This document shows, piece by piece, positions 1-56,819 of a DNA stretch of 64,000 bases. The translations under genes and the position numbers were made by a program. The notes beneath the pieces were generated by a model, which ran no database searches, was not told the origin of the DNA, and saw nothing but the letters and a program-made list of their open reading frames with translations. This stretch comes from a plasmid: the sequence record NZ_CP106960.1, one strand, 5' to 3'. Numbering within the stretch: position 1 is the first letter of the stretch; each line of letters starts with the position of its first letter.

Positions 1-61
1 AAAAAGTCTCCAGTACAGATTTTTTGTGAGTCCGGTCTGCTCGAACAGCCCGGAGTGAAGA

Positions 62-88
62 AGCAGAGTTCGCGCTCTGCTTTTTTAT
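62..88 (+). terminator. Rho-independent terminator-like hairpin (GCAGAG-ttcgcg-CTCTGC followed by T6)
   Basis: Perfect 6-bp stem with a T-run read directly in the sequence. Being palindromic it could act on either strand. Confidence 0.45.
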
Positions 89-289
89 TGCCTGAAATCC
101 GGCAATATCCTGCGCGTCGTCTGACGCAAACCTCCCTAGTCGTCCGGCCTCTTCTGCCGTCGTCCTTTTCGGTTTTTTTGCAATGAGTGAAACGCCCTCA
201 TTACGCTTATGCCCTGACGGGGCGACGACGAAAAGCAGGGGTGGAGGCCGGATTATTTGGAGCCTGCGAGAAAAAATCTGGCCGGAAAG

Positions 290-600
290 CGACAGCGGCC
301 CTTGCTGCACGGAGACGCTCCTTCAGCGTGCATAAGTAATGAGAGGCTTTCACGGCAACGACGGACAGGACGGCAGAAGACGCCGGAAACCCGGCGTTCC
401 CTGGCGACCGCCGGGGCGGTCAGTGAAAGCGGCGCTGCCGGAACGGCAGCTGCAAGCGCAAGGGGTTCAGGCATCGCTTGCTATCCGAATGGACGGAGAC
501 GCGAGCGGCTCCGCGTAGCGCGGTGGACACACGTCCACCACGCGAAGTGCAGGCGACGACCCGGCTACGACGGGGAGCCGAAGGTGCCCGCAGTGTAGTT
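290..600. repeat. Partial, diverged copy of the family-A long repeat (shares the ...ccggaacggc(a/t)gctgcaagcg(c/a)(a/t)aaggggtt... core and the agtgtag end)
   Basis: About 60 bp of clear similarity to positions 3020-3080 and 8100-8160, then divergence. GC-rich, no credible ORF. Confidence 0.4.
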
Positions 601-639
601 CGCAAACAGAAAAACTCGTGCAAAACCATCACTGAAAGT

Positions 640-725
640 CGTCGAAATATAAAATTAAAAAAGTGCAGATATTGCACTTTTATGGATTTATTTTTTGCAT
701 AATTTCGCACTAAAATAAGTGCAGT
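640..725. promoter_or_regulatory. AT-rich promoter/operator region with palindromes AAGTGCAGATATTGCACTT and GCACTAAAATAAGTGC upstream of the HTH gene
   Basis: Inverted repeats read directly. They lie immediately 5' of the 736..1014 XRE-like ORF. Confidence 0.35.
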
Positions 726-735
726 TTTTGCAACT

Positions 736-1014
736 TTGGTGGGTTTCCAGATGACGGGTTACGAGCTGCGTTTGTGGCGAAAAGGCATGGGCTGGAGCAG
801 CGATAAAGCGGCGGAAGAGCTTGGCGTAAGCCTGCGCACCTGGAAAGAGTATGAACAGGCGGCAGAAGTAAAACGGGTCGTAGAACTTGCAACGGTTTCA
901 CTGTCCCTCGCTGCGATCTTCCCCACGTGTAGGCTCCGAAAAACAACTAAAGAGCGTGTGCTTAACATGGTTCTTGCACTCCTGAACTCAGCGGGCCTGA
1001 AGGGGCCGCGCTGA
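736..1014 (+). CDS. Small XRE-family helix-turn-helix DNA-binding protein
   Basis: 92-aa ORF. The motif ...SDKAAEELGVSLRTWKEYEQ... is typical of the XRE HTH family. Palindromic operators lie upstream. Confidence 0.5.
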   Translation: MVGFQMTGYELRLWRKGMGWSSDKAAEELGVSLRTWKEYEQAAEVKRVVELATVSLSLAAIFPTCRLRKTTKERVLNMVLALLNSAGLKGPR

Positions 1015-1033
1015 GCGCCGCCCCTGCCCTTCT

Positions 1034-1864
1034 TCAGGCGGCAACGCCTGCGTTGCGCATAAAGTCCATCATGGCCTTGATCCTGCGCTGGCTGTTAAGC
1101 CTTTCTTCGAAGTTATTCAGGTAATAAGCAGGCGTATATCGCACCAGTTTAAACTGCTTCGTCAGGGTGTTGCCTGTAACCACCTCGGCAGCGATTCCCA
1201 GCAACGAAAGCTGTATAAACGCCATATCAGCCGCAATCGGATCGATATCGATACAGCTGGCAAACAGGTGAGCCGATGGATTGACGTCAGCCTCAAGCAG
1301 GCATTCAGCATAGGCAATAATCATCCCGGCAGAGCCGCAGGCCGGATCGCTTATTGTGGCGATACCCTCCCGTGCTATTTTTTCCTGAATACCGGGGATC
1401 AGCATCCGAGCCATCATCGACTGGACGTAATACGGCGTAAAGTATTGCCCCATCCCGCCCGATCCCAGCTCCAGCTCCATGAAAATCGAGCCAATAAAAT
1501 CATGAAATTTTGCATCCAGAGAGTAATACATCAGGGTGAACAGCTCCTGAAGGTTGCGGATATCGGCTGCATCATACCGGGTCAGGATCTTACGACAGTA
1601 CTCCGCTTTCTCCGGTGTTTTAAGACCCACGATGTCCACTTCCCTGGCGGCCAGCCTGATAAAGTCGCTGAAAACATCCCAGCGGTGAAGGTGTCGGGCG
1701 GTCTGATTGAACAGACGAATAAACTGCTTTCGCGCCGTGTCGATAGACATCAGGCGCGGCGCGGCCGGAGGCTGAGGAACGACCGGCGCCGGCTGCACGG
1801 CAGTGCGGACGGCGTCGCTGTGTTTTACCTGGTCAAAGAAGTCTGCAAAGCTCATCTGGGACAC
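1034..1864 (-). CDS. Plasmid leading-region N6-adenine DNA methyltransferase (HsdM-like orphan methylase)
   Basis: 276 aa. Contains the GQYFTPYYV N6-MTase motif (NPPY/DPPY-class context) and PACGSAGMI (AdoMet-binding, motif I-like). Confidence 0.8.
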   Translation of the reverse strand: MSQMSFADFFDQVKHSDAVRTAVQPAPVVPQPPAAPRLMSIDTARKQFIRLFNQTARHLHRWDVFSDFIRLAAREVDIVGLKTPEKAEYCRKILTRYDAADIRNLQELFTLMYYSLDAKFHDFIGSIFMELELGSGGMGQYFTPYYVQSMMARMLIPGIQEKIAREGIATISDPACGSAGMIIAYAECLLEADVNPSAHLFASCIDIDPIAADMAFIQLSLLGIAAEVVTGNTLTKQFKLVRYTPAYYLNNFEERLNSQRRIKAMMDFMRNAGVAA

Positions 1865-1902
1865 GTTTTTCTCCTGCCGCCCCGTCAGGGGCGGCGTTTT
1901 TA

Positions 1903-2157
1903 TCAGTTAAAGGCGCGTTTCAGTTCGAGCGTGCGCAGGACGTGACCCCAGTCGCTTCCGCACATGGCGGGAATGCGAATGCGGCGTTTCTTTTTAAGGC
2001 AGTGCGCGATATGACGACCGAACGCCCGCAGGGTCGGATCGACCTCGGCACTCGGAATGTCTTCCCGGTTGTGGCGGGTTTGTTTGCGTGTAACCGACGC
2101 CGGGGACTGGACAGACAGCGCGGAGGATGTAACAATCTGGACTTCACTGAATTGCAT
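1903..2157 (-). CDS. Hypothetical leading-region protein (about 84 aa counted from an internal Met)
   Basis: ORF co-directional with the methylase and immediately upstream of it. The start is taken at MQFSEVQ. Confidence 0.35.
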   Translation of the reverse strand: MQFSEVQIVTSSALSVQSPASVTRKQTRHNREDIPSAEVDPTLRAFGRHIAHCLKKKRRIRIPAMCGSDWGHVLRTLELKRAFN

Positions 2158-2241
2158 GGTTTGTTCCTTTTGGTGATGGCCGGATTTTCGTTTCGAGGCG
2201 TACAATCCGGCGTGGATGAAGCAGGCGTAAGCCTGCTTTTT

Positions 2242-2601
2242 TCATTTCTGGCTCAGGCTCTCAGGGCAGAACACCGCTTTCACTTTCGCCACGATATCGG
2301 CGTGGTTCAGGTTGCTGAAGTCACGCAGACGGAAATAGCGCTTACCAAAACGCGCAAAAATGTCCGTGACGTTCCCGCAAATCATTTCTGCCATCATGAA
2401 GGTTTCCGTGTCCTGGGCGGTGTCACAGCTCCAGTTGATCATTGGTGGGCGCAGACCCGCCGCGTCGTGGAACTTGTTCACGTCGATCTCGACAGGTGCG
2501 AGAAGCGCCTTCGTCTCACGGCTGCGCCAGTACGCATGCTCAGCTTCGGCGGTGGCGTTCATATCCAGAGAGGCGAATGAATCAGTTGTCTGTAAATGCA
2601 T
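2242..2601 (-). CDS. Hypothetical leading-region protein, 119 aa
   Basis: ORF directly downstream (minus strand) of family-A repeat copy 1. The gene order and the 1-nt spacing to the repeat suggest it is expressed from it. Confidence 0.5.
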   Translation of the reverse strand: MHLQTTDSFASLDMNATAEAEHAYWRSRETKALLAPVEIDVNKFHDAAGLRPPMINWSCDTAQDTETFMMAEMICGNVTDIFARFGKRYFRLRDFSNLNHADIVAKVKAVFCPESLSQK

Positions 2602-2625
2602 GGTTTGTCTCCTTTTCAGTTTTCA

Positions 2626-3148
2626 CATCACCCGTTGAGTTACGGGAGCCGCGGTTTTGACGTTTTGCGGGAACCTGCTGAAGTTTCCCGGGGGATAAAA
2701 CATCACCCGTTTGAGAACCTTCGCCGCAGGTGCGTAAACGCCACGGGCCGAGGCAGATGTCCGGGGCGGACGCCTGAAGTTTTCGCATGCGAAAAGTTTT
2801 GGTGGTCGTGCGCCAGCATTCACCCTGGACAGCCAGGAGGACTGTGGTGTTCTCAGCACCCGGCGGAGGGACTCAAAGGGGTGAAAAGGGACCGGACGGA
2901 ATGGGCAGGGGCCCGCCGCAATGACGGAAAGCCGCGCGCGGCGAAACGGCGTTGCCCCCTACATCACGGCGCGTCTTCTGGTGACGGGATGCAGGGAGCG
3001 CAGGAACGGCGCGACTGAGCGGCGCAGCCGGAACGGCTGCTGCAAGCGATAAGGGGTTGCGTCAGGATGGAAACCCGCTGCCCCGGAGGGGCCGGGCAGA
3101 GACGGCGAAGCTGGCTCTGTGCGTAGCATGACAGCCGCCCGGACGCCC
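2626..3148. repeat. Family-A long direct repeat copy 1 (about 523 bp; ssDNA-promoter/ssi-like element of the leading region)
   Basis: About 97% identical to 7699..8221. GC-rich with internal inverted repeats. Lies upstream of a minus-strand gene block. Confidence 0.7.
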
Positions 3149-3428
3149 AGTGTAGAAAAGAAAAGACGATGAAACGAATTAGGTACTATGCCCTGATCGA
3201 CGGGAGACTCTGTAGGGGGATAGTGCCCGACGCCAGGGAGTGGAGCGACGCGCCGCAGGCGCGTTGCCCTGCCCCGTTCGGCCTTCCGGTTTGTTCATGC
3301 GAGCGGTCGCGACCGTAAGGAAAAAGGGGCTGCCGGTAAACCGGCACCCCCTTCATAAAGGCGCTTGTGGTAAATTAGATCACACCAGAAGCCCTGAAAA
3401 GGCGGGGTTTCCCCCGCCTCACAGGTTG

Positions 3429-3587
3429 CTACTTACCGGATTCGTAGGCTAGCACGGCAGCGACCTCCCGTTTTCCGTCCTTTAAGCGAATTTCGCAAAG
3501 CGATTTCCGCGTCAGGTAAGTGAATGCCAGCAGTGTGAGACACACTATCAGTACGCACCAGATAACGGTACTTCGCGGCAGTTTCAT
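3429..3587 (-). CDS. hok: Hok-family host-killing toxin (52 aa)
   Basis: [52 protein letters not shown] is near-identical in pattern to R1 Hok and F FlmA. Confidence 0.85.
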
Positions 3588-3644
3588 AGCCTTCTTCTCC
3601 TTGCGCAGAGCGCAGTAAGCGGCTAATCTAGATGTGTCTAGCAT
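3429..3644 (-). CDS. mok: Mok (modulation of killing) overlapping reading frame
   Basis: 71-aa ORF in the same frame extending 5' of hok, as in hok/mok/sok loci. Confidence 0.6.
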
Positions 3645-3660
3645 GTAGATCGGCCTCGGG
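3595..3660 (+). ncRNA. sok: Sok-like antisense RNA (position inferred only)
   Basis: By analogy with hok/sok, the antisense RNA overlaps the mok start on the opposite strand. Promoter not verified. Confidence 0.25.
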
Positions 3661-3832
3661 TTAATTTGAAAAAAATTACTCGGGGCTTTTCTCTTTCTGC
3701 CTCACAGCATCCAAACCACTGAAACGTATGAGGCAAAAAGCCTCAAGCGCCAACGCCATTATATCCTTCTGTCGATGTTCTGCCCAGGAATACCCGCCTG
3801 AAACCCGGATAAATCCTCACCTTTTTTCGGCA

Positions 3833-4063
3833 TTATTCCCCGTTACCGGTTCCGTTTGCCCACTCGTCGATCTGCTCATCCAGCGCCTTCAGATGCTGAT
3901 CAACGCTTTCAGCAAGCCGCTCGCTTTCCGTCTCCAGCCAGCCGCTAAGTCCGTCCCATTGACATGACATTTTATTCAGCTTTTCTAACATGCTTTGCAG
4001 CTGTCTACGCTGTCTGCGTGCTGTCTTCAGCTCTGCTTTACAGGGATTGTTTCTTATGGCCAT
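3833..4063 (-). CDS. Hypothetical 76-aa protein between psiA and hok (FlmC-position ORF)
   Basis: ORF only. Its position matches the flm locus of F-like leading regions. Confidence 0.35.
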   Translation of the reverse strand: MAIRNNPCKAELKTARRQRRQLQSMLEKLNKMSCQWDGLSGWLETESERLAESVDQHLKALDEQIDEWANGTGNGE

Positions 4064-4785
4064 ACCGACCTCAGCGTAATTTTATTCGGTACCATCCAGC
4101 GCTCCAGCTCTTTCGCCACCGGTGACGCGTTCTCCGCCACATCCCGCACGTCAGCAACGATTTCATACGCCCGGTCGTACCAGCTTCTGACCAGATGAGA
4201 GAGCGACGGACAGCGTTCTGTCCATGCCCACAGCATCCGCTGCATGTCATAGTCCCGGACATCTTGCTGCGACCACGATTCATACCATGCCTGGAGCGTT
4301 TCCGGCGTCTGGAATGCCAGATCGATCTCAGCCTGACCGACCAGATTCTGGTACGCATCCTCTTTCTCGCGCGCGCGCCGAGTTTCCTGACGGGTGTACA
4401 GGTCCGCTTCTCGCCTGTCCCGCTTTACCCTGCGATCGCTCAGACTGAATGCCTTCTCAGGAAACATGATTTGCACCAGTCGCGTATCCAGCGGCGCATA
4501 GCAGTGGCGACCCCGCGAGCGAATCAGGGTATCAAACGCTTCCTCATAGCGTACCAGGGGGGTCTTGTCCTCTTTCAGCCAGTAGACCCCCGGCACCTGA
4601 TTGATTGATCGAGTACTTAACTTACTGCTGCCGGTCAGAATCCGGAAAAATGCACGAGCATAGGGATACGGCTGCCGGGAACGACGACCAGAATTTTCCG
4701 TCTCCTCTTCCACGATCATGATGGCGCGTAGAGCCGCTTCACGCTCGGGCCGCTGCGTGACGAGTGAGAGATGACGCGGGATCAT
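4054..4785 (-). CDS. psiA: Plasmid SOS inhibition protein A
   Basis: 243 aa, immediately downstream of psiB with a 4-nt overlap. Size and position as in F and R100. Confidence 0.8.
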   Translation of the reverse strand: MIPRHLSLVTQRPEREAALRAIMIVEEETENSGRRSRQPYPYARAFFRILTGSSKLSTRSINQVPGVYWLKEDKTPLVRYEEAFDTLIRSRGRHCYAPLDTRLVQIMFPEKAFSLSDRRVKRDRREADLYTRQETRRAREKEDAYQNLVGQAEIDLAFQTPETLQAWYESWSQQDVRDYDMQRMLWAWTERCPSLSHLVRSWYDRAYEIVADVRDVAENASPVAKELERWMVPNKITLRSVWP

Positions 4786-5210
4786 AATTTCACCTCATGC
4801 TTCAGGAAGGCGATGATGTCGGAAGGGATATAGCCATCACGGTGGCGTACATCTGCCACACTCAGGGCGTGATTCAGTTCTGACACGTTGAAATAGTCGC
4901 ACTGGCGAACGCAAACCACGTGATGGCCCTTTCCTGACATCATCAACAGAAGCCACTGGTCACTGGCCTCTCCCGGACTGCACAGCACCATCTGAAAGAG
5001 ACCGTGGGTCGGTGCGAAACGGACCTGAACCGGGAACAGCCCACCGAACTCGCTACCGTACTCCCCGAGAATGTCCCAGTTATCCGGGAGTCTCAGCGCC
5101 ACCATTACGGTATGAGTCAGTTCGCGGCGGAAGGAATAGCCTGCCGAGCGGGCAGTTTCGAAATCATCGGCGGTCATCTCTGCCAGGCTGAAATTTGTTG
5201 TGCTCATCAT
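4782..5210 (-). CDS. psiB: Plasmid SOS inhibition protein B
   Basis: 142 aa. RRELTHTVMVALRLPDNWDILGEYGSEFGGLFPVQVRFAPTHGLFQMVLCSPGE closely matches PsiB of F. Confidence 0.9.
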   Translation of the reverse strand: MMSTTNFSLAEMTADDFETARSAGYSFRRELTHTVMVALRLPDNWDILGEYGSEFGGLFPVQVRFAPTHGLFQMVLCSPGEASDQWLLLMMSGKGHHVVCVRQCDYFNVSELNHALSVADVRHRDGYIPSDIIAFLKHEVKL

Positions 5211-5248
5211 GTTCTCCTTATTGCCGCCCCGAAGGGCGGCACTCCTTA

Positions 5249-7264
5249 TCAGGCAGCCAGTGTGGTGTTGTCAGCGTCGGTTTCGGTGTCAACGGAAGCG
5301 GTCTCTTTCACAGCGTCAGACTGCGGACCCTGTAGCCATGCCGGAACCCAGCGGGTATCTTTCAGCCAGAACTCAGCATGTTCCGCCGCGTCGCCCTTTT
5401 TCATTTTCTCGGCGTCCTTCGCTGCCCCGACACTTCCGGCATCATTCATTGCGGCCACAATCTGGCTGTGCGTGAGGCTGCTGAAATATCCCACTTTTGT
5501 TGGTTGCCACCAGTCACGCAGATGGAAGCCAATCGCCTTTTCCAGATCGTCGAGTGGGCTGCGCGACGTATGCCCCATATCGCGGGTCTGAACACCGTCA
5601 ACGGAACAGGCCGTGCAATACGCCATGAGCGACATCAGCAAATCACCTTTCAGGCTAAAGAAGGTTGTGAAATCCTTACGCCATCCTTCCGGCAGCAGTT
5701 CTTCCAGTCGGGCCTGTTCTGTCATCAGCGCGGTGTAAGCGAGGCCCTCATTTCCGGATGGGGCTTCGCGCGTCAGCGAGTAGTGCGAGACGTTAACGCT
5801 GATCCCGAAAGGATGCTTTTGTGGGCTGTAGCCGGAGAAAACGCTACAGCACATACGCCAGACCATCAGGGGAACGGCTTTTTCAGGCTGTTGCATCAGC
5901 GCAGCCTGGACAGCGAGAGTACGCTCAGATGACATTTTGGTGAGTAGCGGAACGCTGATCCCTTCTGCGGCATCGGGCTGACTTACATATGTGACGCTGC
6001 CTGACGCTTTCTTATCTTCATTCTCTGCGTCATCCTCCGGCAGATCAGCCTTACGGCACACGCCACGCTGCACGTACAGCTCACCCTCCATAAAGCTGGC
6101 TACCACGCCAGCATTCGACTTAAGCGCATCAGTCCATCCACGCACTTCTGCGGCATGTTCAATGAGGTTCATTTCGCTCAGGGCGGCGTAAGCCTCGTCA
6201 CTGTTCTCGTCGAGTGCATTAAGCTGATCGGTCAGTTCATCCAGACGACGGCTGTCATCCGGGTTGTATACCGCATCCGGCACCGGAAGCAGCAGGTAGT
6301 CGTTATCATTTGTACCGTAACGGCTAATTCTGGACGGACGGCCCATCGCCCATGCCCAGCCCTCTTTCTGCTGGATTTCGAGGGCAATTTTGTCCAGTTT
6401 TTCGGCCATCAGGGTGTCAACAAGCAGCCTGTCGACGGTCCCGTCGCCCTCCTGCGCGCTGAATAAATCTTCACGGACCACACCACCTGCCAGCTCGTAC
6501 GCCTCACGACCGATGAAGCCAAAACGGGCATCCGTAACGGCGATTTCACTCTCGGTGATCTGCCTTTTGACTAAATGGGCTGACGCACAGGAATAAGTCG
6601 CCATCAGGTTTTCATACACGGCGACCTGACGAACCTGATCGCTTTCAAGGCACAGCGCCTGACACTGCTCCATATCAAGCTTGTCTTCTGCCAGCAGTTT
6701 CAGCAGTGACGGTGCGAGGGTGGCGAGTTTCAGCATGCGCTGTACATGGCGGGAGCCGAACCCCAGTTCATCACCAATCTGCGAAGCGGTTTTGCCCATC
6801 TCAGCCAGGGTGCGGAAGCTCGTGATTTGCTCTGCCGGGTGCATTGCCACACGCTGCTCATTTTCCGCATGAGATGCCGCAGCGGCGATTTCGCGCGATA
6901 CGCGTTTAACAGGCACCACGTCGTCCGGCTGGATCAGGTTGTCTTCAAGGAGCAGCGCAAGGGCCGTGGTACGGCGACCGCCACAGGCCACGCCGGATTT
7001 ACAGTCTGGCATATCATGGACAACGAGGTTCTGAAGCAGACCAATCGCAGCAATGGACGCAGCCAGTCCGCGAACGCTCTCCTTTGAATAGGGAATGGTT
7101 CTGGCATTCAGGTCTGAAATGACCAGATTTTTGACTTTCTCATACTCGATCGGTGTGGCATCGAGGATGGATTTCAGCACCTCCGGCGCGATGGCCTGCG
7201 CAGGGCTGGCTTTCTTACGGCTGGATTGTTTAGGGCTTTTTGCTTTAGACTCGGCAACTGACAT
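5249..7264 (-). CDS. ParB-like nuclease-domain protein of the leading region (671 aa)
   Basis: N-terminal ParB/Srx-like region (ISDLNARTIPY..., GGRRTTALA). Size and position as the about 650-aa ParB homologue of IncF leading regions. Confidence 0.8.
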   Translation of the reverse strand: MSVAESKAKSPKQSSRKKASPAQAIAPEVLKSILDATPIEYEKVKNLVISDLNARTIPYSKESVRGLAASIAAIGLLQNLVVHDMPDCKSGVACGGRRTTALALLLEDNLIQPDDVVPVKRVSREIAAAASHAENEQRVAMHPAEQITSFRTLAEMGKTASQIGDELGFGSRHVQRMLKLATLAPSLLKLLAEDKLDMEQCQALCLESDQVRQVAVYENLMATYSCASAHLVKRQITESEIAVTDARFGFIGREAYELAGGVVREDLFSAQEGDGTVDRLLVDTLMAEKLDKIALEIQQKEGWAWAMGRPSRISRYGTNDNDYLLLPVPDAVYNPDDSRRLDELTDQLNALDENSDEAYAALSEMNLIEHAAEVRGWTDALKSNAGVVASFMEGELYVQRGVCRKADLPEDDAENEDKKASGSVTYVSQPDAAEGISVPLLTKMSSERTLAVQAALMQQPEKAVPLMVWRMCCSVFSGYSPQKHPFGISVNVSHYSLTREAPSGNEGLAYTALMTEQARLEELLPEGWRKDFTTFFSLKGDLLMSLMAYCTACSVDGVQTRDMGHTSRSPLDDLEKAIGFHLRDWWQPTKVGYFSSLTHSQIVAAMNDAGSVGAAKDAEKMKKGDAAEHAEFWLKDTRWVPAWLQGPQSDAVKETASVDTETDADNTTLAA

Positions 7265-7336
7265 AGTTAATACCTCCGGTGTTAATGATTGTCCGGCCCT
7301 GCGGAGTGACCGCTCCGGCAGGGCACCTTCATACTG

Positions 7337-7660
7337 CTATTTTCTGAATCCGTAGCTTGCAAGTGCGCGATTCATCCACGCCCCGCCATCTTTCTGGAAA
7401 TTCCATACACGCTCTTTCAACATCCCGTCTTCATCACGGACAACAAGCTGAAAATGCGTTTTCTGATCGTTCTCAATACCGACGTTGGTGTACTGCGCCG
7501 CAACAGCCCTCGCCTCTTCTCGGGTAAATGCCCCTTCAGGCAGCACCACAGGCGCGGTGGCAACGTCAGCGTTCAGCAATGCCGCTAGTTCAAGTTCTTC
7601 AGCGGTCGGTTCGCGTAGCGACACGGACTGATTCAGAAATTCCTGTAATGTTTTGCCCAC
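7337..7660 (-). CDS. Hypothetical leading-region protein, 107 aa
   Basis: First ORF downstream (minus strand) of family-A repeat copy 2. Confidence 0.5.
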
Positions 7661-7698
7661 TGCATTTCTCCTGATAAAAGGGTCTGGCCTTTAAAACC

Positions 7699-8221
7699 CA
7701 TCACCCGTTGAGTTACGGGAGCCGCGGTTTTGACGTTTTGCGGGAACCTGCTGAAGTTTCCCGGGGGATAAAACATCACCCGTTTGAGAACCTTCGCCGC
7801 AGGTGCGTCAACGCCACGGGCCGAGGCAGATGTCCGGGGCGGACGCCTGAAGTTTTCGCATGCGAAAAGTTTTGGTGGCCGTGCGCCAGCATTCACCCTG
7901 GACAGCCAGGAGGACTGTGGTGTTCTCAGCACCCGGCGGAGGGACTCAAAGGGGTGAAAAAGGACCGGACGGAATGGGCAGGGGCCCGCCGCAATGACGG
8001 AAAGCCGCGCGCGGCGAAACGGCGTTGCCCCCTACATCACGGCGCGGTTTCCGGCGACGGGATGCAGGGAGCGCAGGAACGGCGCGACTGAGCGGCGCAG
8101 CCGGAACGGCTGCTGCAAGCGATAAGGGGTTGCGTCAGGATGGAAACCCGCTGCCCCGGAGGGGCCGGGCAGAGACGGCGCAGCCGGCTCTGTGCGGAGC
8201 ATGACAGCCGCCCGGACGCCC
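7699..8221. repeat. Family-A long direct repeat copy 2 (about 523 bp)
   Basis: About 97% identical to 2626..3148 by eye, with a few SNPs. Confidence 0.7.
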
Positions 8222-8271
8222 GGGGCAGCAAAAAAAAGCCGGAAAAACTAACTGTTATCTTGCTGAAAATT

Positions 8272-8526
8272 TTATTTTTTATTCGCTTCAGCCATCTCAG
8301 CATATTGCGGGTCGCTCGCTTTCGGCAACTGCAGGCTCAGCTGGCGGTAGTGGCGCAGCCTTTCCATAAAATACTCGCGAAGATGCACCGGCTGCTCGCG
8401 CGCGATAATTTCAGGTACCACCGGCTGATTCAGGCGCTCTTTAAACGCGACGCCCGACGCGGCCAGATCTACCGCCACCTTGTCCTGATCCTCTTTTGAT
8501 AGTTTTGAAAGATTAATTTCGCTCAT
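8272..8526 (-). CDS. Hypothetical small protein, 84 aa
   Basis: ORF in the operon downstream of ardA. Confidence 0.4.
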   Translation of the reverse strand: MSEINLSKLSKEDQDKVAVDLAASGVAFKERLNQPVVPEIIAREQPVHLREYFMERLRHYRQLSLQLPKASDPQYAEMAEANKK

Positions 8527-8683
8527 ATTTTTACCTTGTTAATTTTTTTACTGACCTGCGCTGCCAGATCATGCAGGGCGGCGTGTCGCGGCGCCGAAGG
8601 CGCAGTGACAGCCGCCGGCAGGCAAGGCCTGCCCGGGTTTTCCCACGGGCTGACAGGCGGAGGTGCCGCCTGCCTGGATCACC

Positions 8684-8872
8684 TTAACGTTGATCCTGCC
8701 GGATAAACTGTCCGCCTATGTATACCGCAGACTGGCAGCTCATAAAATGGCAAATTTCGTCGATCACTTCTTCGGTTCTCAGCTCCCGTAATCCGGCCTC
8801 ACGGCGGCCGGCGTTAATTCGTTTTTTGTACTGACGCAGGATGTCACGGGTTTGTGTATCAAGTTTCATCAT
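8684..8872 (-). CDS. Hypothetical small protein, 62 aa
   Basis: ORF immediately downstream of ardA. Confidence 0.3.
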   Translation of the reverse strand: MMKLDTQTRDILRQYKKRINAGRREAGLRELRTEEVIDEICHFMSCQSAVYIGGQFIRQDQR

Positions 8873-8913
8873 TCTGTCCTTTTATGCAGGGGGACTATCC
8901 CCCTGCCCTTAAA

Positions 8914-9414
8914 TCAGTTCTGAAAAACGTGGCCTTCCAGGAACACCAGACCGTTCATAAACATATCCCGGCCGTAAGCATCATAATCAAAGTAACCGCG
9001 CAGCGATTCAGGCACCTCATTAAGCAAGCCGTGCTCCTGCACGTAGTCATACGCATAATCTTCCTCGCTTGCGGCTTCACCACACCAGGCATCTTCAAAC
9101 GCGTCGTAATCACATTCACCGGTGAACTCCACCCAGGCAATGAAAGCCTCGTCCTTACCGTCATCAACCGCGCGCTTGTAGGCCTCAATAAAAGCCCAGT
9201 CAACCGAGCTTTCTGAAGCAAATTTATCCGGAATGCCCTCCCAGTCCTGGAACATCAGTTCCGGATCGGATTCGTTTGCGTGCAACGCATGGCATGCCTC
9301 CATAAAATCTGACTTATCGTCAAAATCGGTGAGATCGAACCATTTACCGAAGAGACTGCCGCAGTTGTATTTGTGGTAAGTACCAACATAAATCGCCGGG
9401 GTGGTAGTGCTCAT
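8914..9414 (-). CDS. ardA: Antirestriction protein ArdA (type I R-M inhibitor, DNA mimic), 166 aa
   Basis: MSTTTPAIYVGTYHKYNCGSLFGKWFDLTDFDDKSDFMEACHALH...ELMFQDWEGIP is the classic ArdA N-terminus. The ORF-track 5' extension runs into the repeat and is rejected. Confidence 0.9.
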   Translation of the reverse strand: MSTTTPAIYVGTYHKYNCGSLFGKWFDLTDFDDKSDFMEACHALHANESDPELMFQDWEGIPDKFASESSVDWAFIEAYKRAVDDGKDEAFIAWVEFTGECDYDAFEDAWCGEAASEEDYAYDYVQEHGLLNEVPESLRGYFDYDAYGRDMFMNGLVFLEGHVFQN

Positions 9415-9454
9415 AAAAATCCTCCGTTGCCAGTGTCGTCTGAGTTCCGGCTTA

Positions 9455-9680
9455 CGCCGTGCCGACACGACAGCCCGACTTCGAGCGGAAGATGCAAGGG
9501 CGACACCGCAGGCCGCAGCGCAGATAAAAGCGAGGACGTTCTGGACGGTTCTCCCGCGAAACCTGAGCGGGAGAACGACGGGAAGAACGGCATCAGGCGT
9601 AAAAATCTGCGACCGGGCGAGGATGGCGGCGAAGCGACCCCTTGCATCTGGAGCGTTCGGGCTAAAGTGAAGGCACGGCG
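9455..9680. repeat. Family-B hairpin repeat copy 1 (about 226 bp; the ends cgccgtgcc...ggcacggcg form a long imperfect inverted repeat)
   Basis: Three copies in the window. Internal long-stem inverted symmetry. Located 40 nt upstream of ardA. Confidence 0.75.
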
Positions 9681-9803
9681 TTAGCCGCAGACCGCACGGA
9701 TGTTTTTGCCTGCGTGGCCGTAACATCGTGGAGGTCACGCCGGTAAAGCGGAGCGTGCGACATCCTTTTTGCTTAAAAGCGGGGCGCTCTGCCCCGCCTC
9801 AAT

Positions 9804-10583
9804 TCAGGCTGCGATCCGGATCCCGGAAAATGATTTCATCATCACATCGATTTCCGCTCGGGCTGTTTTCACAACATCCCGTAACCAGTGGCGGTCAAAC
9901 CAGACACGTGACGGGCTGTCAGGATGCCGAAGGGCATAGGGAACATGCGTCTGGCCGACGGTGCGCCCGTTACACTCCAGGCGGATCTGCAGACGGCGGA
10001 AGGTTTCTTTCTCGTCGAGCACGGCTTTCAGCCTGGCATCCAGCGTATCGTTGTCCCATTCAGCATCGTCCTGAACCTGCTCCACCTCTGTCACCGTCAG
10101 GGTGAAATTGCGTGTGCGGCGGGTCAGTACCAGCGGTTCTGTGGCAGGCCGCAGCGCTTCGGTCAGGCGATACCCTGCCGACGCCACGCAGCTGCAGACG
10201 TGATTGATTTCGTCTCGCAGTGCTTTCAGCAGGCAGAGGATTTGTGGCGTATTCATCCCGGCAGGACAGTTGTCGTATTCCAGTGAAATGGTTCCGGCAT
10301 GTGCCTTTCGGTGCCCCAGCGAGTTCCTGTAAAGGCGAACGACCAGTTCGCTTCTGTGGATCAGCGGCAGCAGCATCTGCACTGCCTGTTCGCTCATTAA
10401 TCCCCGCAGGGCGATTTCAGGTAACAGTCGCTGCAGTTGCGCGGCATCGAGCTGGCCATAAAACGCCACGCCCTCCCCACGCGAGTAATTCAGGCTGGTA
10501 TCGATATCCATCGTGGCTGGCCAGCCACGCGAAACCAGTGTGTTGCGGGTATGGCGGTGCATAAAGCGATAAGCGGTGGTCAT
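9804..10583 (-). CDS. Hypothetical leading-region protein, 259 aa
   Basis: ORF bracketed by family-B repeats 1 and 2. No recognisable motif. Confidence 0.55.
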   Translation of the reverse strand: MTTAYRFMHRHTRNTLVSRGWPATMDIDTSLNYSRGEGVAFYGQLDAAQLQRLLPEIALRGLMSEQAVQMLLPLIHRSELVVRLYRNSLGHRKAHAGTISLEYDNCPAGMNTPQILCLLKALRDEINHVCSCVASAGYRLTEALRPATEPLVLTRRTRNFTLTVTEVEQVQDDAEWDNDTLDARLKAVLDEKETFRRLQIRLECNGRTVGQTHVPYALRHPDSPSRVWFDRHWLRDVVKTARAEIDVMMKSFSGIRIAA

Positions 10584-10616
10584 GATGTTCTCCTTATACT
10601 GATGCGGCGACGTCTT

Positions 10617-10842
10617 CGCCGTGCCGACACGACAGCCCGACTTCGAGCGGAAGATGCAAGGGCGACACCGCAGGCCGCAGCGCAGATAAAAGCGAGGACG
10701 TTCTGGACGGTTCTCCCGCGAAACCTGAGCGGGAGAACGACGGGAAGAACGGCATCAGGCGTAAAAATCTGCGACCGGGCGAGGATGGCGGCAAAGCGAA
10801 CCCTTGCATCTGGAGCGTTCGGGCTAAAGTGAAGGCACGGCG
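10617..10842. repeat. Family-B hairpin repeat copy 2
   Basis: Near-identical to 9455..9680 and 11770..11994. Confidence 0.75.
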
Positions 10843-10938
10843 CTGATATCCGCCGCGCTGGCGCGGCATAAAAAGCGGAGTAAACGACATCCTTGTGCGT
10901 TGAAAATACCGGCCAGCAAATCCTGGCCGGGCATAGCG

Positions 10939-11274
10939 TTATCGGGTGTACTCCTGCCATTCCATATCAAATCTGTCCCTGACCACCGGCAATTCGGGCG
11001 TACCGGTGACGATCCAACTGTCGAGGAACTTCAGTCCACGCAGCAATGTATTTTCAACTTCATCCAGTAACACTATGCTGCTGAACCAGACCTTTCTCTC
11101 AGGAAATAGCCAGCAGTGATCTGCGCTGTCCTCTTTCACATCTGGCCACCAGGTTCGCCCCATAGACATGGCGCCAGCTTCGGCCAGGGCAAGATTTTCA
11201 GCTTCAATAAGCATATAAACATCGGTTTCAGTGCAGTGGGTTTCGGTCTGAAATCCTGTCAGCCAGGTGTTCAT
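10939..11274 (-). CDS. Hypothetical protein, 111 aa (second gene of a 2-gene operon)
   Basis: Overlaps the upstream ORF by 4 nt (ATGA), indicating translational coupling. Confidence 0.5.
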   Translation of the reverse strand: MNTWLTGFQTETHCTETDVYMLIEAENLALAEAGAMSMGRTWWPDVKEDSADHCWLFPERKVWFSSIVLLDEVENTLLRGLKFLDSWIVTGTPELPVVRDRFDMEWQEYTR

Positions 11275-11738
11275 AGGTCTTTTACCTCATTGATGGCAAA
11301 CCGCAGGTGATCCCAGTTAAATCCATAGTTAGCATCGTGCGCGTAATAAGCGCGCTCCATCGCCGCTGCAATCGTCGCGCTATCAAGCGAGCTATCGACC
11401 GCAAGAAAATCATCTTCAAGCCAGAATGTGCCGGTGCAGAGCGCGTCCTGGGGGTATTCCTGCAGACGGGTCATCATTCCTCCCACAGTCATCTCTCGCC
11501 GCAAAATATGGGACGGGGTAAGCACAGAATCTGCGACATCGTTCCAGCACCATTCTTCATCATCGGGTACAGACTGCTGAATGGTCTGGAGCTGCACACC
11601 CGGCATCCTGGAAAGTCGTTCCAGCACATCCCCCAGATACAGTCTTTCACCGCTACCGTCTTCACTTCCCAGGTAATGGTTATTGAGATAGACGGCAAAC
11701 TCGCCATTATCGAGATCAATACAGGTCAGTCTGAACAT
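11271..11738 (-). CDS. Hypothetical acidic protein, about 155 aa (first gene of a 2-gene operon)
   Basis: ORF track 11271..11783. The start is placed at the Met (MFRLTC...) just outside repeat B3. Confidence 0.5.
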   Translation of the reverse strand: MFRLTCIDLDNGEFAVYLNNHYLGSEDGSGERLYLGDVLERLSRMPGVQLQTIQQSVPDDEEWCWNDVADSVLTPSHILRREMTVGGMMTRLQEYPQDALCTGTFWLEDDFLAVDSSLDSATIAAAMERAYYAHDANYGFNWDHLRFAINEVKDL

Positions 11739-11769
11739 TACGCTCTCATCCTCATTCGGCACCCAGTTG

Positions 11770-11994
11770 CGCCGTGCCGACACGACAGCCCGACTTCGAG
11801 CGGAAGATGCAAGGGCGACACCGCAGGCCGCAGCGCAGATAAAAGCGATGACGTTCTGGACGGTTCTCCCGCGAAAATTGAGCGGGAGAACGACGGGAAG
11901 AACGGCATCAGGCTTAAAATTTGCGACCGGGCGAGGATGGCGGCGAAGCGAACCCTTGCATCTGCAGCGTTCGGGCTAAAGTGAAGGCACGGCG
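11770..11994. repeat. Family-B hairpin repeat copy 3
   Basis: Same as above. It is followed by a conserved about 60-bp tail that is also present after copy 2. Confidence 0.75.
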
Positions 11995-12220
11995 CTGATA
12001 TCTGCCGCCCTGGCGCGGCATAAAAAGCGGAGCAAGCGACGTCTTTCATAAGGCACCAAATTTGAGATACTGCATCATAGCGGTGCCTGTTATGTATATA
12101 TTTTTTGGTAAGAAACTTGTTATAGTCGGTAGACTGTAGTGAAATTTTTGTTCAACCTTCTGAAGTTTTTTCTTATTATCATTCCTAATGCAGATATATT
12201 ATTAATTAACAGGATTTTTT

Positions 12221-12898
12221 ATGGCCGGAAGAGAAGATGGTTTAAAGGCACTTTTTGACACGCGATTTATAAGCGCTTGCAGCTACTTTAAAGGCATGGA
12301 AGTTAGAATGCCACTGAATGGGCTAGATCAATTTTTTAATGCGGACACTTTATTTTCAACATTCGATAAATTTTTCATAGTTGAATTTAAATCTTATCAA
12401 TCCAGCCTGAATGCAGAAAGAAAGAAGCCTACGGCTTGCCAAATTTGTTGCGACTTACCTGTTAGCCCTACAATAATACCTTTACATGATGCCTGTCACT
12501 TTGCTATGTGGGGGAATATAGAAGAGACTTTGCTCTACGGAAATTACGACATATACAGAAAATGCGTCTGCAATTCATCTGTATTACCTACGTGCCGAGG
12601 GGCTGCGCAGTCCATGTTTTCACCAAACCCTAAACATTACGATGTTCTTGCCAGATTAGCAGGGCGAAACAACGCAGGATTAAATGCAGATGACTTTCTG
12701 ATTTATCTTGAATGGCTACTTGGCAGGAGAGGAGGAAGTGGCGAAGGTCGTGGAGATTTCAATGCAGCAATATATGCGACATCAACTACTCATGCTGTTA
12801 ATGGAGTTCCGTTCAAAAGCATGGCTAGCCTACAACGGTGGTCGAAGGGGGTTCGCCCAGGCAAACGGAATGATGACTGGGATAGCTTCAGTTTTTAG
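12221..12898 (+). CDS. Hypothetical protein, 225 aa, AT-rich codon usage (orphan)
   Basis: ORF with an AT-rich 180-bp upstream region. Composition differs from its neighbours. No motif recognised. Confidence 0.5.
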   Translation: MAGREDGLKALFDTRFISACSYFKGMEVRMPLNGLDQFFNADTLFSTFDKFFIVEFKSYQSSLNAERKKPTACQICCDLPVSPTIIPLHDACHFAMWGNIEETLLYGNYDIYRKCVCNSSVLPTCRGAAQSMFSPNPKHYDVLARLAGRNNAGLNADDFLIYLEWLLGRRGGSGEGRGDFNAAIYATSTTHAVNGVPFKSMASLQRWSKGVRPGKRNDDWDSFSF

Positions 12899-12923
12899 AT
12901 AATATTCATTTTATGACGATCTG

Positions 12924-13215
12924 GGTAATGACTCCAACTTACTGATAGTGTTTTATGTTCAGATAATGCCCGATGACCTTGTCATGCAGCTCCACCGATT
13001 TTGAGAACGACAGTGACTTCCGTCCCAGCCTTGCCAGATGTTGTCTCAGATTCAGGTTATGTCGCTCAATGCGCTGAGTGTAACGCTTGCTGATAACGTG
13101 CAGCTTTCCCTTCAGGCGGGATTCATACAGCGGCCAGCCATCCGTCATCCATACCACGACCTCAAAGGCCGACAGCAGGCCCAGAAGACGCTCCAGCGTG
13201 GCCAACGTGCGTTAC
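12924..13215 (-). mobile_element. Truncated IS1 (3' about 290 bp including the IRR and the InsB C-terminus)
   Basis: The IS1 terminal repeat ggtaatgactccaacttactgat is present. The 88-aa ORF equals the C-terminal half of InsB. Confidence 0.75.
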
Positions 13216-13309
13216 CTAACAATAAACCTGTTTAAATATCCAGATAAAAACATTCAATCTGGGTCAAATGAGTGATACAGTTTCACCCATAAGACCCAAT
13301 GGAGGCAAT

Positions 13310-14743
13310 ATGTCTGAATTTGAATTACTGGCGCAGGATCTGCTTGAGAAAGCAGAAGCGGAAGAACAACTGCGACAGGAAAATGATAAAAAGCTGCTCG
13401 GGCAGGTGCTGGAAATCTATGACCAGAAGTACGTGGCTGAACTGCTTAGAAAAGTTGGTAAAAATGAGTGGAGTCGCGAGACTCTTAATCGCTGGATTAA
13501 TGGTAAGTGCTCACCTAAGACGCTGACGTTAGCCGAAGAGGAACTTCTACGAAAAATGCTTCCGGAAGCGCCTGCACATCACCCTGACTATGCCTTCCGG
13601 TTTATTGACCTGTTTGCTGGGATTGGAGGTATACGGAAGGGCTTCGAAACCATCGGTGGCCAGTGCGTTTTTACCAGTGAATGGAATAAAGAGGCTGTGC
13701 GCACATATAAAGCTAACTGGTTTAACGATGCTCAGGAACACACTTTCAATCTCGATATTCGGGAAGTCACGCTCAGTGATAAACCTGAAGTACCTGAAAA
13801 CGATGCCTATGCTTACATTAATGAGCATGTGCCGGATCATGATGTACTTCTAGCAGGTTTCCCCTGTCAACCGTTCAGCCTTGCGGGCGTAAGCAAGAAA
13901 AACTCGCTCGGGCGCGCGCATGGTTTCGAATGTGAGGCTCAGGGAACGCTTTTCTTCGATGTGGCGCGTATTATACGCGCAAAAAAACCTGCCATCTTTG
14001 TTCTTGAAAACGTTAAAAACCTGAAGAGCCATGACAAGGGTAAAACCTTTAAAGTCATCATGGATACCCTCGACGAACTGGGCTATGAAGTTGCGGATGC
14101 AGCTGAGATGGGCAAAAACGATCCTAAAGTTATCGACGGAAAGCACTTTTTACCTCAGCACCGAGAACGTATCGTTTTGGTCGGTTTCCGTCGTGATCTG
14201 AACATTCACCAGGGCTTTACCCTGCGCGATATTAGTCGTTTTTATCCGGAACAGCGTCCGTCATTTGGCGAACTGCTGGAACCCGTGGTTGACAGCAAAT
14301 ATATACTGACGCCGAAACTCTGGGAGTATCTCTATAACTACGCCAAAAAGCACGCAGCTAAGGGTAACGGATTCGGTTTTGGCCTCGTTAATCCTGAAAA
14401 TAAAGAAAGCATTGCCCGTACGCTTTCTGCTCGCTATCACAAAGACGGGTCTGAAATTCTGATAGACCGTGGCTGGGATATGGCCACAGGTGAAACAGAC
14501 TTCGCGAACGAAGAAAATCAGGCGCATCGGCCCCGCAGGCTGACTCCACGAGAGTGCGCGCGCCTTATGGGTTTTGAAAAAGTAGATGGCAGGCCTTTTC
14601 GCATTCCTGTGTCAGACACTCAGTCGTACAGGCAGTTCGGTAACTCCGTAGTGGTGCCCGTGTTTGAAGCCGTAGCCAAACTGCTTGAACCTTATATCCT
14701 GAAAGCGGTTAATGCCGATTCGTGCAAGGTTGAACGAATCTGA
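13310..14743 (+). CDS. ecoRIIM: C5-cytosine DNA methyltransferase M.EcoRII (CCWGG), 477 aa
   Basis: Motif [11 protein letters not shown], motif IV PCQPFS, ENVKNL. Size and convergent partner match the EcoRII system. Start set at MSEFELL. Confidence 0.85.
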
Positions 14744-14776: not shown

Positions 14777-15991
14777 CTATGGAATATCTGCGTAAAGCCC
14801 TGTCAGCTCAGCAATAAACGCACCTAGCGTCATTAGCTCAGCTCTCACCGCCTCCGGGTATTTTTTGTGCAGCGATGATGGCACGACCAATCTGACACCC
14901 GACTCCCGCATCTCCCGATATTGAGCCAGAGAAACTCCCTCTTGGAGTGTAAACAGATGCACCTGATGAATTTTATCGGCCTCATTCAGTATCTGACGCC
15001 AGCGATCCTTACAGGTAGTCTTGACTGCCAGCATGCGCAGATTTTCTACGGGAAACTCAGTATCGTGGTAAGCCCCTGCGGAAGGGAAAAGGAAATCGGG
15101 TTTTTTATTACCTTCTGTGATGGCCTGCGTCGCAAAGTGTCGCAGGCCGTGCTCAATGAATAGATGCTCCAGGTGCAGTTCCAGCGACTTCCCGGCTCTG
15201 GATTTACGGCGATTGCTGACAGAATTGGCCAGCGCAATAAATTCATCCACAGAGCCAAATCCTTTCCGGATGATATCCAGAACATGCAGTTCCTCAACCA
15301 ATAGAAATATGTCGTACTCCACGCGCCGGCGGTCAAGAAGTTGCTCATCCGGATCAAGGGAATTTTTCACATAATGGCTGGCTGCATACTGAATAATTTC
15401 ACTTCCCGACGGAAAGCGCAGGTGCCAGTCTTCAGGTAGAATATATTTATGATTTACTGGCGCTTGCTGTAGAGATAGTCCGCCTAGAATCTGTCCTGCG
15501 GGGCCGGATATAAGCGCTCCGGGTATAACTTCACCAATAGCGGTCTCAATGACGTCCTCTTCATCAGTGCTGGCGCATACCCAAATATTTACTTCCTTAC
15601 AGTCCCCCCCTTGCTCATCAAGCTTGAAAGCCAGGAGCGTCAGAGCCCCTGTATTTTCAGGATTCTGAAGTGGGCTGCCTCTACCCCAGCGGGTAATCCT
15701 TTTTTCATTCCGGGTTTTACCAAAATGACGGCTGTTATAATAAATTGCCCGGGCTTCGCTGTCAGGGCAATCATGCGATGACACATGTGCGGTGAGAAAA
15801 ACCGAAGGGTTCAGTTCACGGGTATGGTTGATAGACGGAAAGAGTTTTTCAACGATACCTGAAGGGATATAAAGCCCTACCTGGTGACCACCTGTTGCGC
15901 CGGTATCGTTGGCGGAAAGGCGTTTGATGTAGACGAAGTAATTCTCACATGCGATCTCAAGTAGCCAGTTGTGGAAAACCGACATAAGCAT
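14777..15991 (-). CDS. ecoRIIR: Type IIE restriction endonuclease R.EcoRII, 404 aa
   Basis: 404 aa, tail to tail with the methylase. The N-terminus (M)SVFHNWLLEIACENYFVYIKRLSANDTG is consistent with EcoRII. Confidence 0.8.
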   Translation of the reverse strand: MLMSVFHNWLLEIACENYFVYIKRLSANDTGATGGHQVGLYIPSGIVEKLFPSINHTRELNPSVFLTAHVSSHDCPDSEARAIYYNSRHFGKTRNEKRITRWGRGSPLQNPENTGALTLLAFKLDEQGGDCKEVNIWVCASTDEEDVIETAIGEVIPGALISGPAGQILGGLSLQQAPVNHKYILPEDWHLRFPSGSEIIQYAASHYVKNSLDPDEQLLDRRRVEYDIFLLVEELHVLDIIRKGFGSVDEFIALANSVSNRRKSRAGKSLELHLEHLFIEHGLRHFATQAITEGNKKPDFLFPSAGAYHDTEFPVENLRMLAVKTTCKDRWRQILNEADKIHQVHLFTLQEGVSLAQYREMRESGVRLVVPSSLHKKYPEAVRAELMTLGAFIAELTGLYADIP

Positions 15992-56341: not shown

Positions 56342-56561
56342 TGTTCTGCAAATGAAATCCGGGACTACCTTTTCTCGGTTCTGTCAGGCGGTAAGCAGGC
56401 AAAGGATATGATAATCAAAAAATGCAGATAAAATCATGCGAGATATTATATTTATCATTAATCATAAAATCATATCTGATATGATGTTTATCAATTTAGT
56501 AGATAAGCATTCTTGATTTAAATCTTTACTTAACCGGACATTATCAGACGGAGCGTGCAGG

Positions 56562-56819
56562 ATGGATGAAGAAATGATGTTTTCACTCAGTTATGAGCAG
56601 CTGACCCGGTTCGTGGAACAACGCATCCGGAGATGTAAACTGGACAGCGAGGGACTGACTTACATCATCGCATCGGCCGAAGCTTCCGCCATTCTGGGCT
56701 TCTGGCATGAACTGGCCATAAATGGCTATGCCTCAATGAATGCCATAAAAAGAGAAGAGCTCATAGACGCCGATCTTCAGCGTCTCAGAAAGCTCATCTG
56801 GCCAGAGACGGGTAAGTAA
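56562..56819 (+). CDS. Hypothetical protein, 85 aa (gene 1 of a 3-gene operon)
   Basis: ORF. Its stop overlaps the next start. Confidence 0.45.
   Translation: MDEEMMFSLSYEQLTRFVEQRIRRCKLDSEGLTYIIASAEASAILGFWHELAINGYASMNAIKREELIDADLQRLRKLIWPETGK

Follow-up and report, generated by a model that had tools for sequence, protein, structure and literature searches.

Two 523-nt direct repeats in a plasmid leading region as probable class 1 single-stranded-DNA promoters of the Frpo/ssi family

What are the two long and nearly identical repeats that head gene blocks near the start of plasmid sequence NZ_CP106960.1? The stretch of this plasmid that we analysed, 64,000 nucleotides long and referred to here as the window, carries copy 1 at 2626-3148 and copy 2 at 7699-8221, each in front of a block of minus-strand genes (coordinates are those of the window unless another record or locus is named). 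The first-pass annotation of this DNA had noted that their position and polarity would suit the single-strand promoters of plasmid leading regions known as Frpo or ssi, and had wondered whether they form a distinct variant with a length and sequence unlike Frpo. The first of these ideas is borne out by homology to the ssiD element of plasmid F, by collinearity with F and by a conserved, strand-asymmetric hairpin, with the transferred strand judged from a candidate origin of transfer (oriT) in a relative. The second was wrong and arose because Frpo had been taken for a short element. We conclude that the repeats are very probably (at a rough estimate of 88%) class 1 single-stranded-DNA promoters (Frpo/ssi/ssp1) that correspond to Frpo1 and Frpo2 in F, with promoter activity assigned by homology. 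As such, they are an already known kind of element that would be caught by the BLAST criterion previously applied to thousands of conjugative elements.

Homology to the Frpo elements of plasmid F

In an ungapped comparison, the two copies show 10 mismatches over 523 nt and no insertions or deletions, which amounts to 98.1% identity; the first-pass annotation had given ~97%, while its coordinates and its description of both repeats as GC-rich hold. The copies form a direct repeat with an offset of 5073 bp, a sharp left edge at 2626 and 7699, and a right edge that frays beyond 3148 and 8221. Their G+C content is 64.6% (copy 1) and 65.8% (copy 2), compared to 53.7% for the whole window. A blastn search with the published Frpo/ssi set found no further class 1 copies in the rest of the window (52 kb), and the window copies are confined to two sites in the leading region.

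The reference set for this comparison comprised the known Frpo/ssi elements and the candidate sequences listed by Samuel et al. 2024 in Supplementary Table 2 (PMC11541004). Element ssiD (Frpo) of plasmid F matches both copies with 70% identity over 343-357 nt (E values of 2.5e-32 and 9e-32), far below the homology cut-off of 1e-6 used in the same study (PMC11541004). The best matches in the set are two insect-metagenome candidates, Frpo' 5 and Frpo' 6 (72% over ~400 nt, E ~1e-54), whose similarity continues into the beginning of the repeat's 3' extension (see below), and these insect-gut sequences share the F-type 5' segment, as do the Frpo' candidates of Serratia marcescens (PMC11541004). ColIb-P9 Frpo3 and two Frpo* candidates also match the extension with their 3' ends. 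Within the leading region of F itself (NC_002483), the 523-bp repeats match Frpo1 and Frpo2 only and not the class 2 element found there. Frpo1 and Frpo2 each lie inside a repeat of ~510-520 nt, and a four-way alignment shows the window copies to be collinear with them along the whole length of the ~520-nt unit. Frpo has been defined as a 328-nt element (review PMC7690428) and the deposited ssiD sequence has 351 nt, yet the conserved unit is ~520 nt long and not the 328 nt usually quoted, in F as here. The length that had seemed foreign to Frpo is that of F's own repeats, to which the window copies align end to end.

The genes that follow the repeats are those of a leading region. Both Pfam and the annotation of NZ_MH909330, a Leclercia adecarboxylata plasmid with 97.5% identity over the first 12 kb, confirm the gene blocks that had been drawn downstream of the two copies. 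On the minus strand, copy 1 is followed by open reading frames (ORFs) of 119 and 84 amino acids and an N6 DNA methylase gene (Pfam N6_Mtase), and copy 2 by genes for DUF905, a 671-aa HTH_ParB protein, PsiB and PsiA (all by Pfam), with hok/sok thereafter. Co-oriented early genes (encoding PsiB, PsiA, HTH_ParB, N6_Mtase and DUF905 proteins) are thus found directly downstream of the repeats, and each copy ends 25-40 nt from the ribosome-binding site and start codon of its minus-strand block. The hok/sok-type toxin-antitoxin locus itself lies between the two repeats (3427-3752, minus strand), where the Rfam family sok matches 3585-3752 with 97.8 bits and Hok is annotated in the relative. Across the repeats themselves, NZ_MH909330 carries no annotated feature.

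This layout closely follows that of F. Frpo1 and Frpo2 lie ~5 kb apart with psiB, psiA and flmAB, a hok/sok homologue, between them and are needed for early expression in transconjugants (Couturier et al. 2023, PMC9849209); the window copies are likewise ~5 kb apart and flank psiB, psiA and a hok/sok-type locus. The order of repeat, DUF905, ParB-like gene, psiB, psiA, hok/sok and repeat is shared, with copy 2 at the position of Frpo2, and in both plasmids the strand that is the template for the leading genes bears a long, imperfect hairpin interrupted by a mismatch bubble. In contrast, the sequences are only ~70% identical, the tip of the window hairpin is a shorter A/T-rich palindrome, no ssb gene directly follows copy 2, and copy 1 heads two small ORFs and a methylase gene where F has ygeA/ygeB. 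The plasmids also differ in their relaxase, which is MOBP on the host plasmid of the window and MOBF in F, and in the identity between their two copies (98% in the window compared to 92% reported for F).

More distant relatives are the ssi1-3 elements of the IncI1 plasmids ColIb-P9, R64 and pESBL (class 1 of Wen et al. 2025). These share with the window an upper stem in which TGTCCGGGG is paired to CCCTGGAC, the bubble, and a GGGAGCGCAGG..CGGCGCGAC tail, and they too are dispersed repeats heading leading operons with psiB and ardA in plasmids with a MOBP-type relaxase system. They differ in having ~50% core identity and in lacking the ~80-nt 5' segment (CATCACCCGTTGAG...TTGACG...) of the window and F. 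Transcription start sites have been mapped for pESBL ssi1-3, and transcription from single-stranded DNA only, with a transient burst in the recipient, is known for F Frpo1 and Frpo2.

A strand-specific hairpin and its candidate promoter

Folding each strand as single-stranded DNA, as the first-pass annotation had suggested, reveals a stable long hairpin on the + strand, which is the presumed transferred strand, and a much weaker fold on its complement. For copy 1, the + strand reaches -134 kcal/mol (z score of -4.6, with 0 of 100 shuffles as good) and is dominated by one long imperfect hairpin, whereas the complementary minus strand (-108 kcal/mol, z score of -1.75) is indistinguishable from shuffled sequences. 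A homology-free scan after Wen et al. 2025, using 300-nt segments and a threshold of -75 kcal/mol (with a 20-nt step here and 10 nt there), picked out six peaks on the + strand within the first 12.1 kb: 241-600, 2641-3000, 7681-8320, 9401-9760, 10581-10900 and 11721-12060. The class 1 copies pass -75 kcal/mol per 300 nt on the + strand only, where they are ~20 kcal/mol more stable than on the minus strand; other low-energy segments (16-27 kb and 57 kb) are simply G+C-rich, with little or no difference between the strands.

The main hairpin spans 2667-2916 on the + strand (7740-7989 in copy 2) with its tip at ~2785-2795, as obtained from a consensus of ten members: the two window copies, Frpo1 and Frpo2 of F, two Lelliottia sequences, two from an insect metagenome and single ones from Klebsiella and Serratia. 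Across these ten, 95% of the cells in the 76 consensus pairs are standard pairs and 10 pairs show double changes that compensate each other. None of 500 shuffles and no slid control reaches the covariation score, the slid controls being 37-49% paired. Insect and Klebsiella-type members carry a short GCGCGG...CCGCG hairpin in place of the A/T-rich tip. Several G-T pairs are conserved in the + strand stem and turn into A-C mismatches in the transcript sense, which accounts for the fold asymmetry between the strands.

This asymmetry bears on whether the repeats could act at the RNA level, as a 5' untranslated region or leader that controls translation or stability, or else as an ordinary double-stranded promoter or regulatory region. 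The part of the repeat that is most conserved among F-type members, 2626-2725, would indeed be transcribed as a leader. However, it is the mRNA-sense minus strand that folds no better than shuffled sequence, and the conserved G-T pairs are lost in the transcript. Moreover, an Rfam scan of 1-14000 with E values up to 1 found no family matching the repeats and returned only sok and a sub-threshold match to AS-pc01, and a conventional scan for sigma-70 promoters and terminators found no promoter-like site within either repeat on either strand, and thus no minus-strand sigma-70 consensus. We consider an RNA leader or double-stranded promoter very unlikely.

The strand that is transferred was judged from relatives, as a search for an oriT sequence within the window found none. 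On the + strand of NZ_MH909330, we found GGCATTTGTAATA...TATTACAAATGC ACATCCTG/T (with the slash at the candidate nick) between mobC and the mobA/relaxase gene, ~2.75 kb 5' of window position 1. In MOBP plasmids, an inverted repeat followed by a motif of the ATCCTG type beside a relaxase accessory gene marks the nick region. The site in NZ_MH909330, which is unannotated in the record (3211-3257 of locus L001), shows this arrangement, with the inverted repeat GCATTTGTAATA/TATTACAAATGC ahead of such a motif, and we accordingly take it to be a candidate oriT nick region. If nicking occurs there, the + strand would be the one transferred and would also serve as template for all the leading genes on the minus strand. 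The window begins just inside the leading region. Published Frpo-like sequences share this orientation, and several candidates start with CAT, the complement of a start codon.

The class 1 promoters would then work as follows. During conjugation, the + strand of the window would enter the recipient first, as single-stranded DNA, and each repeat would fold on it into a stem-loop of ~250 nt. The stem duplex would mimic a sigma-70 promoter with a mismatched bubble at the -10 position, and host RNA polymerase would start within the stem and transcribe toward the 5' end of the transferred strand. The expected outcome is an early transient burst of expression, of DUF905, the ParB-like protein, PsiB and PsiA from copy 2 and of the two small ORFs and the DNA methylase from copy 1, until complementary-strand synthesis abolishes the hairpin and turns the promoter off.

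The same transcripts could prime complementary-strand synthesis, and it may be asked whether the repeats are mainly ssi signals at which RNA polymerase lays down a primer, with mRNA as a secondary product. Frpo was originally described as the priming signal ssiD, and its RNA-DNA hybrid persists and is extended by DNA polymerase III (review PMC7690428); according to a 2026 preprint, early conversion near ssp1/Frpo depends on transcription in vivo, and homology to ssiD supports priming and promoter activity equally. A priming role is, however, compatible with a promoter role, and the short distance of 25-40 nt between the end of each copy and the ribosome-binding site and start codon fits mRNA leaders. 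We therefore regard priming as the main function as unlikely and continue to read the repeats as promoters.

Where in the hairpin transcription would start depends on the placement of the promoter boxes, for which a position-weight-matrix scan of the transferred strand in 13 family members found no strong -35/-10 pair conserved family-wide. We infer that one placement, candidate A on the 3' arm, is preferable to another, candidate B. The -35 box of candidate A would be TGGACA at 2826-2831 (7899-7904 in copy 2), paired with 2758-2763, and after a spacer of 16 nt the putative -10 hexamer TGTTCT would follow at 2848-2853. Together with the preceding TGG, it would form an extended -10 at 2845-2855 (7918-7928 in copy 2), with C2852, T2853 and A2855 unpaired. 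TGGAC is found in 15 of 16 family sequences, ColIb-P9 ssi1-3 among them, and nearly all family members have a TGTG(G/C) motif followed by a mismatch bubble at the same place. Candidate A predicts transcription starts templated at ~2725-2730 and 7798-7803 and leaders of ~125 nt.

Candidate B consists of TTGAGA at 2711-2716 on the 5' arm and, after 17-18 nt, GTAAAC or TAAACG. We downgraded it on the grounds that it occurs in F-type members only and is not conserved in ColIb, that copy 2 has C for the key A (at the equivalent of 2736), and that the pairing partner of its -35 is missing from the published Frpo2-acrIIA4 construct, which shielded F from Cas9 only if it was positioned in the leading region and on the strand that is transferred (Samuel et al. 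2024, PMC11541004). The 3' arm of this construct ends just past GGCGACAGGGAC, with all of candidate A inside, and candidate A is favoured because the construct holds it whole while lacking the -35 partner of candidate B. Among other placements, TTGACG near the 5' end had the top score in F-type members and was rejected for having no usable -10 and being absent from the ColIb ssi elements, and candidates in the A/T-rich tip were rejected with the absence of this tip from Klebsiella and insect-metagenome members.

Several points weigh against our view of the repeats as active class 1 promoters. Their activity is taken from homologues that are only ~70% identical. The oriT lies outside the window, and the transferred strand is deduced from relatives and from a recognised site whose 8-nt motif by itself is not above chance in the NZ_MH909330 locus (4 matches compared to 2.6 expected), which is why the argument is built on the adjacent inverted repeat and the position beside mobA and not on the motif alone. 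In addition, the closest relatives are typed by MOB-suite as mobilizable rather than conjugative. As for the hexamers, their assignment is our own; the candidate -10 is a poor match to TATAAT, without A at position 2 in this plasmid, and the -35/-10 spacing ranges from 16 to 20 nt across the family, with 20 nt in the functional Frpo2 of F.

Spread of the unit and its 3' extension

The 523-nt unit has matches at 14,916 places in at least 5000 plasmid records, 4998 of which cover at least 80% of the query, mostly with 60-80% identity. Hosts among the matches listed include Escherichia, Klebsiella, Salmonella, Enterobacter, Citrobacter and others, and most matches in plasmid records carry no annotated feature; a phage search with the repeat gave no match. 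All six contexts that we inspected (F, Leclercia, Lelliottia, Klebsiella IncF, Salmonella Dublin and Citrobacter IncF) are arrays of ssb, psiB, psiA, ardA, methylase and DUF905-type genes in leading regions, always oriented alike relative to the element. This agrees with the expectation of the first-pass annotation that such repeats belong to leading regions, and non-leading or insertion-sequence-like contexts, which we looked for in the sampled plasmids, did not turn up.

Could the pair nonetheless be an inert duplicate, such as an insertion-sequence fragment, a repetitive extragenic palindromic (REP)-like element or a recent segmental duplication, without any function? The 98% identity between the copies is indeed what recent duplication or gene conversion would leave behind. 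An origin as a fragment of an insertion sequence or transposon is not supported: the window copies stand only at two leading-region sites, all sampled plasmid contexts are leading regions with uniform polarity, and phages gave no match. Functionless duplicates in general are extremely improbable in view of homologues with 60-80% identity in at least 5000 plasmids (typically one to three and up to eight in each, nearly all covering at least 80% of the unit), of a stem that is kept by compensatory changes, of the one type of context and polarity seen in every sampled plasmid, and of the absence of copies from the rest of the window (52 kb) and from phages.

The high identity of the pair has parallels in the family. 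Over the core columns, copies within one plasmid are 99% identical in the window, 94% in Lelliottia, 86% in F and 80-86% in ColIb, whereas identity between plasmids is 90% for the window and Lelliottia and 68-71% for the window and F. A copy thus resembles the other copies of its own plasmid more closely than those in the corresponding position of other plasmids, and this pattern suggests that class 1 copies of one plasmid evolve in concert, presumably by recombination or gene conversion.

Conservation of the unit extends beyond the main hairpin into an upstream extension at 2966-3148 (+ strand), which is built of small G+C-rich hairpins and also part of the Frpo1 and Frpo2 repeats of F. These additional ~180 nt are common to F (8100-8270 and 13480-13650 of its leading-region locus, L002), Klebsiella, Lelliottia and this plasmid; they are missing from the published Frpo2 construct and, for the most part, from one Lelliottia copy. 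We note that four of the ten differences between the window copies fall in a single small hairpin of the extension, which reads GTCTTCTGGTG at 2974-2982 and GGTTTCCGGCG at 8047-8055.

Another hairpin of the extension forms a small covarying module, GCAGCCGGAACGGCTGC, on the + strand. Within the window, the module (GCnnCCGGAACGGnnGC) is found three times, at 434-450, 3024-3040 and 8097-8113, with its full sites at 429-457, 3019-3047 and 8092-8120. The first of these explains what the first-pass annotation had listed as a third partial copy of the repeat at 290-600: only ~40 nt of that interval (428-467) are similar, with 87-90% identity, and these are the module. An interpretation of 290-600 as a class 1 remnant was accordingly rejected. 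The general form of the module is GCGGCGC, a 7-bp stem with a GAA-type loop, and TGCAAGC, with the loop region GGAAC between the stems. Further sites are found in NZ_MH909330 (L001, 5060-5088), in F (L002, 8183-8211 and 13572-13600) and in two other loci (L003 at 558, 1931, 4503 and 9739; L004 at 4398 and 9366). In the loci examined, the module always has the transferred-strand orientation, and where the flanking fold was examined (at the class 1 copies and at a large hairpin at 154-390, see below) it stands 40-60 nt 3' of a large hairpin; it is also found upstream of DUF932 in relatives, F and Klebsiella. Five different module stems keep their pairing (98.8% paired), with compensatory changes in four of the seven pairs. 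DnaG priming at a CTG beside the module was considered as well and is not supported, with CAG in 3 of 12 copies.

The extension, or the repeat as a whole, might alternatively be a roadblock that delays complementary-strand synthesis and prolongs the single-stranded state, as does the class 2 element ssp2 of F. The conservation of these G+C-rich hairpins together with the core in F, Klebsiella and Lelliottia and the strong covariation of one of them are in line with such a role, and a 2026 preprint mapped polymerase stalling in F to the stem of ssp2. The same preprint, however, assigns the roadblock of F to ssp2 and not to ssp1/Frpo. Furthermore, the Frpo2 construct still protected its plasmid from Cas9 without the extension and the lower 3' arm, and one Lelliottia copy does without most of the extension. 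A roadblock as the role of the class 1 repeats hence appears improbable to us, and their reading as promoters is retained.

Other elements of the leading region

Three of the + strand peaks in our scan belong to a second family of repeats, at 9455-9680, 10617-10842 and 11770-11995, each of which forms a long + strand hairpin and heads a minus-strand gene or gene pair. The members are ~226 nt long, with the other copies 99% and 74% identical to the first, and the genes in question are ardA, a 259-aa ORF and a pair of small ORFs. The family matches F upstream of an ardB-like gene with 71% identity (F 56,488-56,610, corresponding to L002 6489-6611) as well as the candidates Frpo*1 and Frpo'4. This homology identifies the repeats at 9.4-12 kb as class 2 single-strand promoters (ssp2/Frpo3), the type found upstream of ardB/klcA in F and pESBL, and their promoter role is assigned on the same basis. 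They are the same kind of device in the same region as the class 1 repeats but share no sequence similarity with the 523-bp units and have another hairpin and other candidate hexamers. Their best candidate boxes lie on the 3' arm, with TTGCAT followed after 15 nt by TAAAGT, of which TAA is unpaired.

A further large hairpin at 154-390 (+ strand, ~240 nt, long and imperfect) has no detectable similarity to the class 1 copies, class 2, the F leading region or the published Frpo/ssi set. Five sequences, of which four are distinct, preserve its structure: 94.5% of the cells are paired, and compensatory changes affect 19 pairs. We found this hairpin in only 41 plasmids, all of them MOBP mobilizable plasmids of Enterobacter, Leclercia, Lelliottia, Mixta, Citrobacter, Yokenella and related hosts. 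It heads the oriT-proximal operon (a small ORF and DUF5983), where F has Frpo1, and we found no convincing -35/-10 in it. Tentatively, the 154-390 hairpin might represent a new class of single-strand promoter, and the small module might be a signal in its own right, for instance one that serves in priming, blocks polymerase or binds a protein, though we hold this to be a possibility and not the likelier case. To our knowledge, neither a small covarying hairpin nor a lineage-specific large hairpin has been described beside such promoters before.

Two side observations concern the surrounding sequence. A possible small antisense RNA lies on the + strand at 2108-2245, opposite the gap between the 84-aa and 119-aa ORFs: a promoter-like site at 2108-2136 (TGGACA, 17 nt, AACAAT, with TG) precedes the sub-threshold Rfam match to AS-pc01, the antisense RNA of plasmid pHK01 (2128-2241; 35 bits, E value of 0.005, gathering score of 79), and a terminator-like hairpin at 2218-2239 ends the stretch. 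At 61-90, the + strand, which is the presumed transferred strand, carries a terminator-like hairpin and T run (GAAGCAGAGTTCGCGCTCTGCTTTTTT), with no obvious + strand gene ending there.

For the window itself, the outcome of this analysis is chiefly one of annotation, with modest additions in the ~520-nt unit, its concerted copies, and the accompanying small module and lineage-specific hairpin. The leading region of this Leclercia-type MOBP plasmid shares the design of F and IncI1 plasmids, with hairpin promoters (by homology), two of class 1 and three of class 2, that each head an operon on the presumed transferred strand. Frpo/ssi elements time the expression of anti-SOS, anti-restriction and methylase functions as a resistance plasmid enters a new host and are, as such, real determinants of plasmid spread.

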